NCBI GenBank assembly: GCA_030765585.1
Contig: JAVCCJ010000075.1
Location: 37,482-101,481, forward strand
Reading direction: 5' to 3'
Source: Candidatus Zapsychrus exili
GTDB taxonomy: Bacteria; Omnitrophota; Gorgyraeia; Zapsychrales; Zapsychraceae
DNA length: 64,000 nt
Shown: in pieces, positions 42,643 through 47,825 of the stretch
Position numbering within the stretch: the first letter of the stretch is position 1
Layout of the letters: each line of letters begins with the position of its first letter
The notes under the pieces: model-generated
What the model was told of the DNA's origin: nothing
The model's input: the letters and a program-made list of their open reading frames with translations, nothing else
Database searches by the model: none
Translations under genes and position numbers: made by a program

Positions 42643-43929
42643 ATGAGATTGTTTATATATTTATCAGAAATATTAGGTCGAACTGTTCAGGATTCTCAAG
42701 GGAAAACCTTAGGGAAACTTTGCGATGTTTCTATGTTCTTAACCGAAGAGGTGTTTCCTCGCGCAGAAGGACTTGTTGTCAAAAGAGGAATCCTGGCGGG
42801 TAAGCATGCTTTTATTCATATAGACAATATAAAAAGTCTTGGCAAGATAATAAGTTTAAAAGTTGGCGAAGAAAACGTAAGGTTTCAAAGTGATCCGATT
42901 AAGCCAGAATTTTCTCTTTGTCGCGATGTTTTGGATCAACAAGTAGTTGATACTGATGATCAAAAGGTAGTTCGTGTAAATGATGTGCATTTGTTAAATG
43001 TAGATAATCAGCTTTACTTGGGCCATGTAGATGTGGGCTTACGCGGAATAGTTCGCCGTCTAGGTTGGACAAGTTTCGTAGATTCTGTTGTTAAATTTTT
43101 TTCTTTAAACTCTCCATATTTAAAAGAAGAAGAATTAATTTCTTGGAAAAATTCACAAGTACTTACTATTGGTCGCTTAAGGAATGTACTTCGTTCGGAT
43201 GTGGCGCGTCAAAAGCTTTCTAAAATACCTGCAACAGAGTTGGCCGATATTATGGAGGATTTAGATATCTTTGAGAGAGCATCTTTGTTTAAGACTTTTA
43301 GTACTGATCTTCAAAGAAAAGTATTTGCTGATATGGCAAATCATGAAAAAGAAGAGCTTATTGATCAGCTTACCGATCGCGAAGCAGGCAACTTGCTTGA
43401 AAATATACCCGCCGATGAAGCTACAGACCTTTTAAATAATCTTCCAAAAGATAAAGTAAGACATTTGATGCGTTTTATACATTCTGAAACATCAAAACAG
43501 CTTCGCAAATTGTTAGGGTATAAACAGGATACCGCTGGTGGTTTAATGACAACAGAATATTTATGTTTAAAACAAGATGCTCTTGTTCGTGACGCTATGC
43601 AATTGATTAAGGATAATACTGAATATCCAGGAAATATATTCTTTATTTATATAGTAGACGATCAAAATCGTCTTGTAGGAACAACATCTTTAAGGCGTTT
43701 TATTAATGTTGATGAAAACACTCCTGTAGTTGAAACGCGTTATCTGAGCGAAACATTTGTTAGAACAGATGATGAGATGGAAGAGGTAGCTCTTTTGTTA
43801 GAGAAATACAAGTTTTCATCTATTCCTGTTTTAAATGAAGAGGATGTAATTGAAGGGGTTATTACAAGTGATGACGTTATGGAAGAATTAATTTCATTAA
43901 CTTGGAAGAAATATAAAGATCAGTTATGA
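42643..43929 (+). CDS. soluble PRC-barrel-like + MgtE N-terminal domain + tandem CBS protein (MgtE cytoplasmic module without a membrane domain)
   Basis: Acidic helical MgtE_N-like region (TELADIMEDLDIFERASLFKTF...EELIDQLTDREAGNLLENIPADEATDLLNNLPKDKVRHL), then a CBS pair (TTEYLCLKQDALVRDAMQLIKDNT...; VALLLEKYKFSSIPVLNEEDVIEGVITSDDVME). No TM segments. The stop overlaps the next gene's start. Confidence 0.6.
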   Translation: MRLFIYLSEILGRTVQDSQGKTLGKLCDVSMFLTEEVFPRAEGLVVKRGILAGKHAFIHIDNIKSLGKIISLKVGEENVRFQSDPIKPEFSLCRDVLDQQVVDTDDQKVVRVNDVHLLNVDNQLYLGHVDVGLRGIVRRLGWTSFVDSVVKFFSLNSPYLKEEELISWKNSQVLTIGRLRNVLRSDVARQKLSKIPATELADIMEDLDIFERASLFKTFSTDLQRKVFADMANHEKEELIDQLTDREAGNLLENIPADEATDLLNNLPKDKVRHLMRFIHSETSKQLRKLLGYKQDTAGGLMTTEYLCLKQDALVRDAMQLIKDNTEYPGNIFFIYIVDDQNRLVGTTSLRRFINVDENTPVVETRYLSETFVRTDDEMEEVALLLEKYKFSSIPVLNEEDVIEGVITSDDVMEELISLTWKKYKDQL

Positions 43930-45182
43930 AAAAACTTTTTGAAAAAATTAGAAATTCAGCTCCAGTTAGAAATTTTTTATTGTTTTTAGCTGTTATGGGT
44001 CCAGGTATTATTACTGCAAATGTAGATAACGATGCTGGTGGCATAGCTACGTATTCTCTTGCTGGTGCACATTTCGGATATATGCTTCTATGGTCGTTGA
44101 TACCGATTACGCTAGCGCTTATTGTTGTGCAGGAGATGTGCGCTCGTATGGCTGTTGCAACAGGTAAAGGATTAGCTGATCTTATAAGAGAGAATTATGG
44201 AGTTAAGGTAACATTTTATTTGATGTTTGCTTTGTTTTTTGTAAATCTTACAAATGTTATGGCCGAATTTGCTGGTATTGCGGTCAGTCTTGAGATATTT
44301 CATATTAGCAAATTCTTTTCAGTTCCTTTGTCGGCATTTTTTGTTTGGGTAATTGTAGTAAAAGGCACGTATAAGTCAGTTGAAAAGATTTTCTTGTTCG
44401 CTTGTCTTTTTTATGTTGCGTATATTATATCTGGTTTTATTGCTAAGCCAGACTGGTATGAAGTATTTCAACAAACACTTTCTCCGAAGATAAATTGGAA
44501 CATTGGATATGTTGTTATGTTAGTTGGTGTAATTGGAACTACAATCGCTCCATGGATGCAGTTTTATTTGCAATCATCAATTGTTGAAAAAGGTATTACT
44601 CCAGAAGAGTATAAACATTTACGGCTAGATGTTGTAGGCGGTTGTGTTATTGCTCCTGTTGTAGCTTTTTTTATTGTTGTAGCTTGTGCAGCAACATTAT
44701 TTAAAGCAGGTGTTACTATTGAATCAGCACAAGACGCTGCAATAGCGTTGAAACCTTTGGCAGGAAGGTATGCATCTTGGTTATTTGCTTTCGGACTATT
44801 TAATGCTTCTATATTTGCAGCTTCTATTTTACCGCTTTCTACGTCGTACAGTATTTGTGAGGGTATGGGATGGGATGCTGGAGTGGACAAAAGGTTTGAG
44901 GAGGCGCCGCAATTCTTTTGGCTATATGCAACTATGATAGTAATTGGAGCAGGAGCAGTTCTTATTCCAAGATTTCCGCTATTAGGTATAATGTATTTTT
45001 CTCAGGTAGGAAATGGAATTCTTCTTCCATTTATTTTGATTTTTATGCTTTCGCTTATTAACAATAAAGACATAATGGGTGAGTTTACTAATAACAAAAT
45101 TCTTAATATTATAACTTGGGCAACAGTTGTTATAATTATAGGTTTAACACTAGTAATGGTTGTTTTTACTTTTATACATTAA
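43926..45182 (+). CDS. NRAMP/SLC11-family transporter with non-canonical metal-site motifs (DAGG instead of DPGN; APW instead of MPH); NRMT-like putative Mg2+ transporter
   Basis: 11-12 TM helices. TM1 MGPGIITANVDNDAGGIATYSLAGAHFGY aligns with the MntH motif ...[20 protein letters not shown]. TM6 TIAPWMQFYLQSS aligns with ATIMPHVIYLHS. Confidence 0.65.
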   Translation: MKKLFEKIRNSAPVRNFLLFLAVMGPGIITANVDNDAGGIATYSLAGAHFGYMLLWSLIPITLALIVVQEMCARMAVATGKGLADLIRENYGVKVTFYLMFALFFVNLTNVMAEFAGIAVSLEIFHISKFFSVPLSAFFVWVIVVKGTYKSVEKIFLFACLFYVAYIISGFIAKPDWYEVFQQTLSPKINWNIGYVVMLVGVIGTTIAPWMQFYLQSSIVEKGITPEEYKHLRLDVVGGCVIAPVVAFFIVVACAATLFKAGVTIESAQDAAIALKPLAGRYASWLFAFGLFNASIFAASILPLSTSYSICEGMGWDAGVDKRFEEAPQFFWLYATMIVIGAGAVLIPRFPLLGIMYFSQVGNGILLPFILIFMLSLINNKDIMGEFTNNKILNIITWATVVIIIGLTLVMVVFTFIH

Positions 45183-45185
45183 GAT

Positions 45186-46196
45186 ATGGGAAAAATTGTT
45201 GGTCTAACATATGACATAAAGTCAGATTGGATTATTGATTCGTCTGATACTTACGATGCTAACGCAGAGTTTGATAAGCCTAAGACTGTTGATAAGGTTG
45301 TAAAGGCTTTAGAATCTGGTGGGCATATCGTTAGACGAATAGGTAATGTGCATAGCCTTCTTAAACAAATAGATGAGCTAGATGTAGATATTGTTTTTAA
45401 TATTTGTGAAGGCATAAGCACAAGAAATAGAGAATCTCAAGTTCCTATTTTGCTTGAGACTAAAGGTATTCCTTATGTCGGATCTGATGGGCTTACTTTA
45501 GGAATAACTCTAGACAAAGTTATTGCTAAAAGATTGTTTTTAGCAGAGAATATCCCAACCCCACGATATTTTGAAGTTTCATCTACTAATAATTTAATAG
45601 ATTTAAATATAGTCGATTTTCCTCTAATCGTCAAAACTCGCCATGAAGGTTCTTCTAAGGGCATTTCACAGAATTCGCGCGTTGTAGATTATCAAGGTTT
45701 AGAGAGGCAAGTCAATCTGATAAATAATGTTTATAATCAGCCTGCGCTTGTTGAAGAGTTTATAAGGGGCACAGAATTTACTGTAGCTGTCTTGGGAAAT
45801 GATAGCCCAGAGGCTATGCCAGTTGTCCAGGTTAGCGTCGATGGCAATACAAATTTAGGGGACCAGTTTTATACTTTTGATAGAATTTCTTCAGATACAT
45901 TACAGTATGTCTGTCCTGCAAAAATAAGTGATGAATTAAAAGAGAACATACAAGACTTGGCTGTTAAGGCTTATAGTTGTGTAGGTTGCCGAGATTTTGG
46001 AAGAGTAGATTTTAGAGTAGATGAAAAAGGCAATCCGTATGTTTTAGAAATCAATCCATTGCCATCATTGGATGAGGAAGATGTTTTTAATTTGTTCCCT
46101 AATGTTTTAGGTTCAGATTATGATAAGACAATAAATAAGATATTAGATTTAGCTTTAGAGAGGTATGGTTTATTAGAATCCGTAGAGGTAAATTAA
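45186..46196 (+). CDS. D-alanine--D-alanine ligase-family ATP-grasp enzyme
   Basis: Ddl-like N-domain and ATP-grasp motifs (PLIVKTRHEGSSKGIS; EEFIRGTEFTVAVLG; DFGRVDFRVDEKGNPYVLEINPLPSL). Confidence 0.7.
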   Translation: MGKIVGLTYDIKSDWIIDSSDTYDANAEFDKPKTVDKVVKALESGGHIVRRIGNVHSLLKQIDELDVDIVFNICEGISTRNRESQVPILLETKGIPYVGSDGLTLGITLDKVIAKRLFLAENIPTPRYFEVSSTNNLIDLNIVDFPLIVKTRHEGSSKGISQNSRVVDYQGLERQVNLINNVYNQPALVEEFIRGTEFTVAVLGNDSPEAMPVVQVSVDGNTNLGDQFYTFDRISSDTLQYVCPAKISDELKENIQDLAVKAYSCVGCRDFGRVDFRVDEKGNPYVLEINPLPSLDEEDVFNLFPNVLGSDYDKTINKILDLALERYGLLESVEVN

Positions 46197-46197
46197 A

Positions 46198-47349
46198 ATG
46201 AAATCTTTAGATGTGAACAATCAAAAGAAATTAACATTGGAAGAAAATCGTGTTATCAATTTTTTCGATGATGCGAAAGTGTTGGATTGGGAAGACTGGA
46301 GATGGCAGGTAAAACATACGATTCGGACTAAAGATATTTTAGGGAAATTAATTGATTTAACAGAAGAGGAAAGACTTGGAATAGAAGGTTGCGGCAAGAA
46401 ACTTTCTATGGCAATTACTCCCTATTTTGCTAGTTTGATTGACCCTAATAATTCGAATTGTCCAATCCGCCTTCAAAGTGTTCCGCAGAAATATGAATTA
46501 GATTTTTCAAAAGAAGAAATGATTGATCCCCTAGAAGAGGAGAAATACTCTCCGGTGCCAGGTCTTATACACAGATATCCCGATAGAGCGTTATTTCTTG
46601 TAAGTGAAATGTGCGCTGTGTATTGCAGACATTGTACGCGTTCTCGTGTTGTAGGAAAGCGTACAAGAAAATTTAATAAAAAAACATGTGAAGCAGCGTT
46701 TGATTATATACGATTTAATAAAAAGATACGTGATGTTTTGATTTCTGGCGGAGATCCGTTTATGTTAGAAGATTCTGATCTAGAGTATGTTATTCAAAGT
46801 TTAAGGTCTATAGAACATGTTGAATTTATAAGATTAGGAACGAGAGTTCCTGTGACTCTTCCTCAAAGAGTTACAGTCAATCTTGTAAATATGCTTAAGA
46901 AGCATGGGCCAATTTGGATTAGCATACATTTCAATCATTCTAAGGAAATTACAAAACGAGTAAAATTTGCTTGTGATTTGTTGTCAGATAATGGAATGCC
47001 TTTGGGCAGTCAAACAGTTTTACTCAAAGGAATTAATGACAAGCCATCTATAATGAAAGAGCTTATGCATGATCTTTTAAAGATAAGGGTTCGTCCTTAT
47101 TATATTTATCAATGTGATCCTGTTTTGGGATCTAAACATTTTCGTACGCCTGTTTCATGTGGTATGAATATAATTCAGAAACTTTATGGTTTTACAACGG
47201 GCTATGCGATACCAACATATGTTATCGATTGCCCTGGTGGTGGCGGTAAAGTCCCTATTGGGTTAGATTCCATTGTTGATAAAAAGGGCGGAACGTATAC
47301 TCTTCGCAATTACGCAGGAAAGTTTTTTACTTATCAGGATCCTGAATAA
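46198..47349 (+). CDS. lysine 2,3-aminomutase (KamA)-family radical SAM protein
   Basis: CxxxCxxC radical-SAM motif CAVYCRHCTRS. KamA-type blocks (PIRLQSVPQ, ISGGDPF, GLDSIVDKKGGTYTLRNYAG) and C-terminal zinc-cysteine region. Confidence 0.8.
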   Translation: MKSLDVNNQKKLTLEENRVINFFDDAKVLDWEDWRWQVKHTIRTKDILGKLIDLTEEERLGIEGCGKKLSMAITPYFASLIDPNNSNCPIRLQSVPQKYELDFSKEEMIDPLEEEKYSPVPGLIHRYPDRALFLVSEMCAVYCRHCTRSRVVGKRTRKFNKKTCEAAFDYIRFNKKIRDVLISGGDPFMLEDSDLEYVIQSLRSIEHVEFIRLGTRVPVTLPQRVTVNLVNMLKKHGPIWISIHFNHSKEITKRVKFACDLLSDNGMPLGSQTVLLKGINDKPSIMKELMHDLLKIRVRPYYIYQCDPVLGSKHFRTPVSCGMNIIQKLYGFTTGYAIPTYVIDCPGGGGKVPIGLDSIVDKKGGTYTLRNYAGKFFTYQDPE

Positions 47350-47557: not shown

Positions 47558-47716
47558 GTGATTGAAGTAAAAGTTTCTGATCCGCATAATTTTGAAAAAG
47601 CTATGCGTATATTTAAAAAAGCATGTCAAAAAGATGGTTTTATGATGGAGTTGAAAGAAAGACGATATTATTGTAAGCCTTCTGAAAAAAAGAGACATAA
47701 AGGTAAGAAAAGATAA
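47558..47716 (+). CDS. rpsU: ribosomal protein bS21
   Basis: 52-aa GTG-start ORF absent from the ORF track: VIEVKVSDPHNFEKAMRIFKKACQKDGFMMELKERRYYCKPSEKKRHKGKKR. Matches the S21 pattern (I.V...E..E.AlrrFkr.c.k.g...e.rrr..yekpse.rk). SD AGGTGG 8 nt upstream. Confidence 0.75.
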   Translation: MIEVKVSDPHNFEKAMRIFKKACQKDGFMMELKERRYYCKPSEKKRHKGKKR

Positions 47717-47825
47717 ATATTGTATTAATTTGGCTTTGCGCCATGAGTTTGTTGTTTTGTGTCCTAATAGCTAGGCATAAACATAAAGCTTTGGCGTAAA
47801 GCCATTATTTATTTAAGGAATCATA

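Follow-up and report, generated by a model that had tools for sequence, protein, structure and literature searches.

What is made by a lysine 2,3-aminomutase-like radical-SAM enzyme whose gene begins one nucleotide behind the gene of an ATP-grasp protein resembling D-alanine–D-alanine ligase (Ddl)? The arrangement occurs in Candidatus Zapsychrus exili (Omnitrophota, GCA_030765585.1), in a 64,000-nt stretch of contig JAVCCJ010000075.1 (37,482–101,481, forward strand) that was analyzed as a whole and is referred to as the window. The features that bear on the question are:

42643–43929, + strand: MgtE_N/CBS protein, cytosolic, with PRC-barrel, MgtE_N and CBS domains (Pfam matches); the "MgtE-like fragment" partner of NrmT
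43926–45182, + strand: NRAMP-related Mg2+ transporter of the NrmT/NRMT type (PF01566, E = 1e-102)
45186–46196, + strand: putative Ddl-fold ATP-grasp amide ligase, 336 aa, of the "type 1" KamA-linked family (PF07478, Dala_Dala_lig_C, E = 2e-35)
46198–47349, + strand: predicted short-form lysine 2,3-aminomutase, a KamA-family radical SAM/PLP enzyme, 383 aa (LAM_C and Radical_SAM; TIGR00238)
47558–47716, + strand: rpsU (bS21), 52 aa, GTG start (PF01165, E = 2.9e-14)
47731–47804, + strand: long stable hairpin with a U-rich tract on its 3' side, in the interval between rpsU and purH (folding energy −39.2 kcal/mol, z = −5.8 relative to shuffled sequences)

The first four genes share the + strand and are closely packed, as the preliminary description had stated: the MgtE_N/CBS and NRAMP genes overlap by 4 nt, 3 nt separate the NRAMP and ligase genes, and 1 nt separates the ligase and KamA genes. 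The list of open reading frames matches this packing exactly, and both Pfam and NCBIfam back the domains. The 476-nt "gap" placed 3' of the KamA gene is not empty, since rpsU lies inside it. The hairpin beyond rpsU, which has no Rfam family match, probably terminates the gene string. In Ca. Z. exili the ligase–KamA pair closes a tightly packed string, right behind a Mg2+ importer. The neighbors of the ligase are era, nnrE, nth, the Mg2+ transporters, rpsU, purH and folC.

The transporter pair is a known and separate module. Read from its translation, the NRAMP binding-site signature is D-A-G-G ("DAGG") in TM1 and T-x-x-A-P-W ("TTIAPW") in TM6, which agrees with the N→G, A→T, M→A and H→W substitutions of NRMT proteins (PMC8806188). 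The pairing of NrmT with an MgtE-like fragment, homologous to the cytosolic domain of MgtE, was described previously (PMC4072509). Compared to that module (Shin et al. 2014; Ramanadane et al. 2022), the window shares the NRMT substitutions and the partner; however, the partner has an extra N-terminal PRC-barrel domain, and no M-box riboswitch, which Shin et al. took as a sign of Mg2+ specificity, was found in the window. An NrmT-type pair lies upstream of ligase and KamA in just 7 of 45 related loci, so that the four genes are not the conserved cassette that had been proposed. MgtE or CorA can fill the slot elsewhere; in about 18 of the 45 type 1 loci the gene directly upstream encodes either an MscS-like channel or a Mg2+ transporter, the transporters belonging to three unrelated families.

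The ligase and KamA genes themselves are a different matter. A neighborhood survey with the window ligase as query retrieved 80 related loci, and a KamA gene adjoins the ligase relative on the same strand in all 71 that could be evaluated (42/42 of the Omnitrophota type, so that the pair is present in every evaluable Omnitrophota locus retrieved, and 29/29 from other phyla). The pairing is not due to chance, and because the linkage is complete the genes are taken to be a functionally coupled pair, as the preliminary description had supposed. Two architectures were observed. In type 1, found in Omnitrophota, the ligase gene precedes the KamA gene. In type 2, found in many bacterial phyla and one archaeon (Methanomassiliicoccaceae, locus L052), KamA is followed by two ligases and then by a GNAT, a deacetylase of the HDAC/acetylpolyamine-amidohydrolase type, or both. 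A single MAG carries both cassettes (loci L011 and L057). Neither the cassette ligases nor the HDAC–GNAT fusion have an NCBIfam model of their own. Within type 1, mean identity of the pair proteins is 55–63%, rpsU is downstream of KamA in 21 loci, and a gene for a P-II nitrogen-signal protein is 3' of KamA in 10. The surroundings are those of translation and housekeeping (era, rpsU, mnmE), joined in a second Omnitrophota clade by genes for EF-G-like and YchF proteins; the rpsU synteny is missing from that clade and from type 2 loci. According to the record titles of the retrieved loci, type 1 host genomes were recovered from both fresh groundwater and saline sites.

The KamA protein of the window is predicted from its sequence to be a lysine-type 2,3-aminomutase that converts L-lysine to β-lysine. 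It scores 350.3 bits against the KamA subfamily model TIGR00238 (cutoff 199.2), and its highest-scoring model is AblA (TIGR03820, 493.1 bits), where the lack of the C-terminal ~55 positions keeps it under the cutoff of 525.4. The alignment with the lysine 2,3-aminomutase (LAM) of C. subterminale (2A5H) is gapless (E = 3e-133, 52% identity). The radical-SAM CxxxCxxC motif C139/C143/C146 corresponds to LAM C125/129/132, the PLP Schiff-base lysine K351 to K337, and R148, D307 and D344 to the substrate residues R134, D293 and D330. In LAM, R134 binds the α-carboxylate of lysine while D293 and D330 bind the ε-ammonium; glutamate 2,3-aminomutase has Lys/Asn at these two Asp positions. When 61 ligase-linked KamA proteins were scored (the window, 37 of type 1 and 23 of type 2), the Cys triad and R134 were retained in all 61, and D293, D330 and K337 in 36/37 of type 1 and 23/23 of type 2. 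These proteins are 51–55% identical to authentic LAM and 31% identical to EpmB. The window KamA is a short form, ending one residue past the equivalent of LAM P368. It is without the C-terminal tail that in LAM reportedly carries a Cys-rich Zn site completed by C268, a position occupied by K282 here. The short form is shared by most KamA proteins of type 1 and by roughly half of those of type 2, and no Cys-rich motif was found in the longer tails of the remainder.

An assignment of the window KamA as EpmB was rejected: it is 30% identical to the E. coli protein, TIGR03821 gives it 233.7 bits where the cutoff is 369.3, and neither efp nor epmA was found across the 64 kb of the window or in the ±6 kb examined in each of the 80 related loci. 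Annotation of the flanking genes in those loci covered recurrent clusters and spot-checked ORFs, and within that scope no ablB was found nearby. There are no GNATs in type 1 loci, and those of type 2 miss the AblB model, their only NCBIfam match being rimI, below cutoff. None of kamDE, kdd, kce and kal is among the neighbors in the window or the annotated recurrent or spot-checked neighbors elsewhere, which bears out the earlier view that this is not a lysine-fermentation cluster.

The ligase, in turn, has the fold of a cell-wall enzyme. Its AlphaFold2 model (pLDDT = 89) presents the Ddl fold across all three domains, and the best 50 PDB structure matches are all Ddl or D-Ala-D-Lac ligases (TM 0.72–0.85, with 20–26% identity to Ddl/VanA-type enzymes). 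A PDB sequence search at E ≤ 1e-3 returned 41 sequences, 37 of them Ddl-type (Ddl, D-Ala-D-Lac, VanA), and no RimK or PylC chain. Nevertheless, the protein falls under every NCBIfam Ddl/Van cutoff among the best 25 of 55 models, the closest being NF002378 (174.8 bits vs 243). In DdlB numbering, the ATP, Mg and catalytic residues K97, K144, E148, E180, E187, R255, D257, E270 and N272 are invariant, whereas the D-Ala site is replaced: Y216 by I234, H63 by E75, G276 by S294, S281 by D299 and L282 by V300. From the E15-S150-Y216 triad, S150 is retained and E15 is probably retained as E28. The equivalent of K215 varies in type 1 ligases (Arg in 25, Met in 6, His in 4); MAFFT sets this position and that of E15 one residue off, and both were taken from visual inspection and the HMMER alignment. 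Across type 1 ligases the Y216 position is aliphatic, the G276 position is Ser or Cys, the change of H63 to Glu is invariant, and S281 has become Asp or Glu in 39 of 41 sequences labelled type 1. Every type 1 ligase has E28, D30, R82, E83 and K158, and type 2a keeps them almost without exception (19/20). Relative to Ddl, the ω-loop carries an insertion of 6 residues and the N-terminal part one of about 12; the N-terminal domain can be aligned to Ddl to within ±1 residue. Among the annotated neighbors no locus shows a mur, fts or dcw gene. By its sequence, the window ligase is not a cell-wall Ddl. The preliminary description named two findings that would refute its idea, an aminomutase clustering with EpmB and having a genuine epmA/efp nearby outside the window, and an ordinary cell-wall Ddl with its D-Ala site intact; both were checked and neither applies.

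In most relatives, ligase and KamA have a promoter of their own and a terminator-containing leader. The candidate elements of the type 1 leader are a strong promoter, a Shine–Dalgarno-like GGAGA box with a tiny putative upstream ORF rich in lysine codons, and an intrinsic terminator that abuts the ligase start codon. A lysine riboswitch and an M-box were both considered and rejected, as scans of the window and of 22 related loci at Rfam gathering thresholds detected no riboswitch; the only Rfam matches in the window are two tRNAs. RNAalifold recovered the terminator hairpin in the leader and no aptamer. The mini-ORF is conserved in neither length nor sequence. Its excess of Lys codons (14/21 vs 33%, p ~ 0.002, from non-independent loci and with two false candidates included) is a lead only.

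Taken together, the preferred reading, which is given about an even chance, is that the two genes would encode a conserved two-step pathway that forms β-lysine and then, at the expense of ATP, couples it to a cationic small molecule through an amide bond. From the conserved active-site residues, the short-form KamA would isomerize free L-lysine to β-lysine by radical-SAM/PLP chemistry. From its fold and catalytic residues, the ligase would then use ATP to form an acyl-phosphate and, from it, an amide that incorporates β-lysine into a small molecule, the partner being a second, probably cationic, small molecule. Acidic residues have been gained in both substrate sub-sites of Ddl (E28, D30, E75 and E83 in the N-terminal and central domains; D299 in place of the carboxylate-binding Ser281), and this acidification suggests that both ligase substrates are probably cationic, a view of the second substrate that comes solely from charge changes in the modelled pocket. 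By analogy with Ddl, which itself joins two like molecules, the most parsimonious product would be a β-lysyl-(β-)lysine-type dipeptide, a nitrogen-rich, polyamine-like cationic solute.

Gene context, namely the GNAT and deacetylase of type 2, the P-II gene, and the Mg2+ transporters and MscS-like channels, points to small-molecule, cation and nitrogen physiology. The fresh-groundwater hosts, found besides saline ones, argue against a purely salt-induced osmolyte. A more specific proposal is speculative and on the whole unlikely: that the product is a new β-lysine cationic dipeptide or oligo-amine serving as a polyamine/Mg2+-sparing counter-ion in Omnitrophota. Production would be coupled to Mg2+ import, because three unrelated transporter families share the upstream slot, and would be controlled by an undescribed attenuator made up of the strong promoter, the GGAGA box and mini-ORF, and the terminator at the ligase start. 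The type 2 cassette would make more elaborate, acetylated relatives in many phyla.

AblA/AblB, a lysine 2,3-aminomutase and a β-lysine N-ε-acetyltransferase, make the osmolyte N-ε-acetyl-β-lysine in methanogens and some bacteria. There, as predicted here, a LAM-type enzyme makes β-lysine and an adjacent enzyme at once N-derivatizes it into a small solute; however, the partner in the window is an ATP-grasp ligase and not a GNAT, the AblA cutoff of 525 is missed, and many hosts of the ligase–KamA cassette are from fresh water. In PylB/PylC, a radical-SAM lysine mutase forms an unusual diamino acid that a Ddl-related ATP-grasp enzyme ligates to the ε-amine of a second lysine. The logic of mutase plus Ddl-related ligase is the same, but PylB is neither a KamA-family nor a PLP enzyme, PylC is absent from the PDB matches of the ligase at E ≤ 1e-3, and the context in the window is without pylD or pylS/T. 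In the Pbo cluster of P. syringae, a KamA-like radical-SAM gene likewise adjoins an ATP-grasp gene (pboF/pboG, PMC8473136), although that ligase is of the L-amino-acid-ligase type and resides in a 16-gene secondary-metabolite island.

Protein modification is the first alternative. The translation and housekeeping surroundings would fit a macromolecule-modifying role equally well. The ligase would activate β-lysine or a protein carboxylate so that β-lysine is put on a translation-related protein, in the manner of the EpmA/EpmB β-lysylation of EF-P or of RimK/TTL-type tailing, for example of the adjacent bS21. The neighborhood, rich in translation and housekeeping genes, is conserved (era, rpsU in 21 loci, mnmE, EF-G-like, YchF), the pair is highly conserved in sequence within type 1, and EpmA, which transfers β-lysine onto a Lys amine, sets a precedent for a KamA-family aminomutase working with an ATP-dependent, β-lysyl amide-forming enzyme, as predicted here. 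EpmA, however, is a lysyl-tRNA-synthetase paralogue acting through an adenylate while the window partner is an ATP-grasp enzyme, and the KamA is LAM-like rather than EpmB-like (30% identity, 234 vs a cutoff of 369), with no efp or epmA in the regions searched. Against this alternative also stand the fold, which is that of the small-molecule Ddl enzymes, the absence of RimK and PylC from the PDB sequence matches at E ≤ 1e-3, the polyamine-type acetylation and deacetylation enzymes of type 2 cassettes, and the missing rpsU synteny in the second clade and type 2. On these grounds it is judged distinctly unlikely.

A role in the cell envelope is quite improbable. Here, the ligase would add β-lysine, or an amino acid onto β-lysine, in a peptidoglycan precursor or cross-bridge, on the model of the ATP-grasp D-aspartate ligase of enterococci. 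ATP-grasp enzymes that decorate peptidoglycan stem peptides are known, and the nearest solved relatives of the ligase are all cell-wall Ddl enzymes with which it has the three-domain fold and the ATP, Mg and catalytic residues in common. It differs from Ddl/VanA in its low identity, its replaced D-Ala site, its obligatory KamA linkage and its lack of dcw context. The annotated neighbors include no cell-wall genes, the cassette is also carried by the Methanomassiliicoccaceae archaeon, which is without murein, and we know of no peptidoglycan that contains β-lysine.

There is equally little probability in a reversed order of steps, where the ligase makes a lysine dipeptide first and KamA then isomerizes the lysyl residue inside it. 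The type 1 gene order would suit this, and the loss of the KamA tail could mean a changed quaternary structure or substrate; however, the free-lysine residues are kept (R134 in all, D293/D330 with one exception in type 1), and the gene order of type 2 is the opposite. Very improbable, and already contradicted by the data, is the absence of any coupling between an ordinary D-Ala-D-Ala ligase and a KamA of N-ε-acetyl-β-lysine osmolyte synthesis or lysine fermentation, adjacent by inherited synteny: although the ligase matches Ddl best in both NCBIfam and the PDB and the highest model of KamA is AblA, the linkage spans unrelated phyla and two gene orders, all Ddl cutoffs are missed and the five D-Ala-site residues replaced, AblB-type GNATs are wanting in type 1 and miss the model in type 2, and the annotated neighbors show none of the fermentation genes.

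Full-text literature searches found no published description of a cassette of KamA and a Ddl-like ligase. To our knowledge the fates of β-lysine are few: it is fermented, N-acetylated to the osmolyte, built into antibiotic side chains or used to modify EF-P. The pair probably makes an undescribed β-lysine-containing compound. The database label "D-alanine–D-alanine ligase" that many of these proteins carry is misleading and is now corrected. The module is a compact target, testable in a heterologous host, from a phylum with almost no experimental physiology. If the preferred reading is true, a widespread two-gene module would add a new fate of β-lysine, as a new class of metabolite or a new modification, and the D-Ala-D-Ala ligase scaffold would have been retargeted to cationic substrates.

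In the preliminary description, the ATP-grasp ligase and the KamA-like radical-SAM enzyme formed a four-gene cassette with a transporter pair. The ORF listing confirms that the four genes are co-oriented and tightly packed, and the Pfam/NCBIfam domains fit a ligase and a KamA-like enzyme. The supposedly empty 476 nt that follow KamA hold rpsU and a stable hairpin.

42643-43929, + strand: MgtE_N/CBS protein (ORF listing)
43926-45182, + strand: NRAMP (ORF listing), overlapping the preceding MgtE_N/CBS gene by 4 nt
45186-46196, + strand: ATP-grasp protein, 3 nt after NRAMP; Dala_Dala_lig_C, E = 2e-35 (Pfam/NCBIfam)
46198-47349, + strand: KamA-like protein, 1 nt after the ATP-grasp gene; Radical_SAM and LAM_C
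47558-47716, + strand: rpsU (ribosomal protein bS21, 52 aa, GTG start); PF01165, E = 2.9e-14
47731-47804, + strand: 74-nt near-perfect hairpin then a U-rich tract, between rpsU and purH; -39.2 kcal/mol, z = -5.8

The fourth ORF scores 350 bits against the KamA subfamily model TIGR00238 (NCBIfam, cutoff 199). A 100% identical copy of the window's ligase is recorded for the Omnitrophota MAG Candidatus Zapsychrus exili, reported from Ace Lake, Antarctica; the paper on this organism (PMC8542988) makes no mention of the ligase and KamA genes. GC skew is above zero in every 2-kb bin of the window (1-64000), the cumulative skew climbs monotonically, and the long ORFs (>200 aa) at 40-52 kb are all on the + strand, which fits a long stretch of leading strand with co-oriented genes. 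The GC content is ~33%.

The linkage of ligase and KamA, proposed earlier from the window alone, is strict and conserved across genomes. With the ligase as query, 80 loci were gathered, one genome per species, and their genes were mapped by tblastn; L-numbers denote these loci, each with its own coordinates. Type 1 comprises 45 loci (52-71% ligase identity) from Omnitrophota and MAGs labelled Planctomycetales, and the order ligase-KamA on the same strand was found in 42/42 loci whose downstream sequence was long enough to tell. Type 2 comprises 31 loci, 34-41% identical to the window ligase, from Chloroflexi, Micavibrio, Woeseiaceae, Nitrosomonas, Bacteroidales, Lentisphaerae, Bacillota, a Methanomassiliicoccaceae archaeon and two Omnitrophota. 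In all 29 evaluable loci KamA is followed by the ligase and a second, divergent Ddl-like ligase, the second being only ~24% identical to the first (L050-L080, L083:8731-12437). The KamA of this widespread cassette is of the short form. These loci also encode a GNAT, either on its own or within a GNAT-HDAC-GNAT fusion of ~750 aa, and a tight four-gene KamA-ligase-ligase-GNAT form was seen in one Bacteroidota genome. No curated family model exists for the type 2 cassette, and its ligases often carry the database label 'D-alanine--D-alanine ligase'. Since one MAG holds both types (L011, type 1; L057, type 2), they are paralogous systems. Four loci from Bacillota/Symbiobacteriaceae (L046-L049) hold ligase relatives (38-43% identity) with no KamA neighbour. 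These share the N-terminal 'AEFD' and 'NICEG' motifs of the KamA-linked ligase, neighbour an Acetyltransf_3 GNAT in 3/4 loci and a Lon protease in 3/4, and may mark a related pathway with a different amino acid.

The window KamA aligns without gaps to lysine 2,3-aminomutase (LAM) of C. subterminale (2A5H, E = 3e-133, 52% identity). The radical-SAM cysteines are kept, as are R134, which binds the carboxylate, D293 and D330, which hold the epsilon-ammonium of lysine, and K337, which binds PLP (LAM numbering), a combination that reads as a lysine-type active site. Among linked KamAs, the cysteines and R134 are conserved in 37/37 type 1 and 23/23 type 2 proteins, and D293, D330 and K337 in every one of these but a single type 1 ORF. 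NCBIfam places AblA (493 bits, cutoff 525) ahead of the glutamate (441, 650) and arginine (396, 600) aminomutases and EpmB (234, 369). The C-terminal tail of clostridial LAM reportedly carries an inter-subunit Zn site, as described with the 2A5H structure. Most linked KamAs end 0-2 residues from the equivalent of LAM P368, with C268 absent, and are therefore without this tail, which is missing in EpmB too. The ligase-linked KamAs are short forms, a class of their own among lysine-type aminomutases.

A PDB search with the ligase sequence returned 41 sequences, of which 37 were Ddl-type ligases (Ddl, D-Ala-D-Lac, VanA; up to E = 7.5e-29), one an L-amino-acid ligase and three carboxylase subunits; PylC, RimK and cyanophycin synthetase were not among them. 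The AlphaFold model (pLDDT 89, pTM 0.89) matched Ddl and D-Ala-D-Lac ligases exclusively in its top 50 PDB structures, across the whole three-domain fold (TM 0.72-0.85, 20-26% identity). Residues K97, K144, E148, E180, E187, R255, D257, E270 and N272 (DdlB numbering) are invariant in all ligase groups, and DdlB E15 is probably kept as E28 of an AE motif, where the MAFFT alignment is one residue off. The substrate residues are changed: H63 is invariantly Glu, Y216 is Ile/Val/Leu, G276 is Ser/Cys, S281 is Asp/Glu in 39/41 type 1-labelled sequences and L282 is Val, while the omega-loop has a 6-residue insertion relative to Ddl. In the numbering of the window ligase, E28, D30, T34, N72, E75, R82, E83 and K158 vary little or not at all in type 1 (T34 in 40/41) and are conserved in 19-20 of 20 type 2a sequences. 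Fold and residues thus show a Ddl-fold enzyme whose catalytic residues are all in place, predicted to retain acyl-phosphate to amide chemistry, and whose remodelled site is more acidic in both substrate sub-sites, as would be expected for diamino substrates such as beta-lysine.

Neither of the two refuting cases named in the preliminary description applies. An ordinary cell-wall Ddl does not fit, since D-Ala-site residues are replaced and all NCBIfam Ddl/Van cutoffs are missed among the matches listed (best 175 against 243). Nor does an EpmB with epmA or efp nearby: identity to E. coli EpmB is 30%, neither gene was found in the 64-kb window, which also lacks a second ddl, and none of the 80 genomes has either one within +/-6 kb of the pair. 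Fermentation, cell-wall and AblB partners are likewise absent nearby, with no kamDE, kdd, kce, mur or fts genes among the annotated recurrent neighbours and no AblB-type GNAT among those of type 1 loci.

The transporter pair is a known, separate module. The window NRAMP (TM1 'D-A-G-G', TM6 'T-T-I-A-P-W') carries the N->G, A->T, M->A and H->W binding-site substitutions that define NRAMP-related Mg2+ transporters, NRMT (PMC8806188), and a 2014 study (PMC4072509) had already described such transporters paired with a separate homologue of the MgtE cytosolic domain. At its N-terminus the MgtE-like partner carries an additional PRC-barrel (PF05239), unmentioned in these two papers. While the packing of the four genes holds in the window, the cassette is not a conserved unit, as the transporter pair lies upstream of the ligase in only 7/45 type 1 loci. 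The slot between nth and the ligase instead holds a full-length MgtE in six loci (L008, L012, L027-L029, L043), CorA in three (L017, L019, L021) and a mechanosensitive-channel-like (MscS-like) gene in the two extra-ligase loci (L033, L034). Inheritance alone hardly accounts for three unrelated Mg2+ transporter families (NrmT with an MgtE fragment, full-length MgtE, CorA) sharing one slot in different Omnitrophota lineages; this occupancy gives only a hint that the product is linked to cation homeostasis.

In the main Omnitrophota clade the gene order is era-nnrE-nth-[Mg2+ transporter]-ligase-KamA-[P-II]-rpsU-[DJ-1/PfpI]-purH-folC-mnmE, and rpsU lies 3' of the pair in 21 related loci. The P-II gene (PF00543) follows KamA in 10 type 1 loci (L003, L004, L010, L013-L015, L017, L020, L022, L029) at roughly 25-230 nt, and at 25-65 nt in four loci checked (e.g. 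L014:3035-3337), which points to regulation by nitrogen or energy status. The hairpin at 47731-47804 has no Rfam match and probably terminates the long gene string. A second clade retains the pair with other flanking genes: M20 peptidase, PAC2, HAD and ABC ATPase genes lie upstream, while the downstream side has an EF-G-like gene and YchF.

A dedicated leader precedes the pair in most type 1 loci, in the 100-500 nt 5' of the ligase start (L002-L045; e.g. L004:5822-6000, L019:5646-6000); the window and L011 have none, and in both the ligase abuts the NRAMP gene. Chance would give 0.16 occurrences of the promoter motif TTGACA-N14-TG(T/A)TAAAA, which is present in 30/42 leaders. A TTG lies 9-11 nt beyond an A(A/C)GGAGA(A) box, and a GC-rich hairpin shows compensatory changes in 6/7 pairs; its T-run starts a median of 127 nt past the -10 box and stops short of the ligase ATG by a median of 11.5 nt. 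The spacing of these predicted promoter, GGAGA-TTG and intrinsic terminator elements is attenuator-like in geometry. The implied mini-ORFs vary (MK, MN, MTKF, MNNYK, MTIKT and others) and show an excess of Lys codons (14/21, compared with 33% at control starts, the loci being non-independent). The leaders matched no Rfam family, and no conserved aptamer-like structure was found in them.

From these features, KamA would turn lysine into beta-lysine, and the ligase, using ATP, would join it to a cationic small molecule. A second (beta-)lysine is a possible partner, in which case the product would be a nitrogen-rich solute resembling a polyamine. That the pair modifies a protein is an alternative still alive, consistent with the translation-rich synteny; the GNAT and acetylpolyamine-amidohydrolase-type deacetylase of type 2, together with the P-II and cation-transporter neighbours, favour the small-molecule role. 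The logic of the pair resembles that of AblA/AblB, EpmB/EpmA and PylB/PylC. No description of the cassette was found in the full-text literature, in which most subscription journals are not covered; the closest adjacency in print is pboF/pboG of a toxin-related island in P. syringae, with an ATP-grasp of a different type and an unknown product. Both enzymes are members of known superfamilies, and the ligase-KamA pair is a compact and attractive experimental target.
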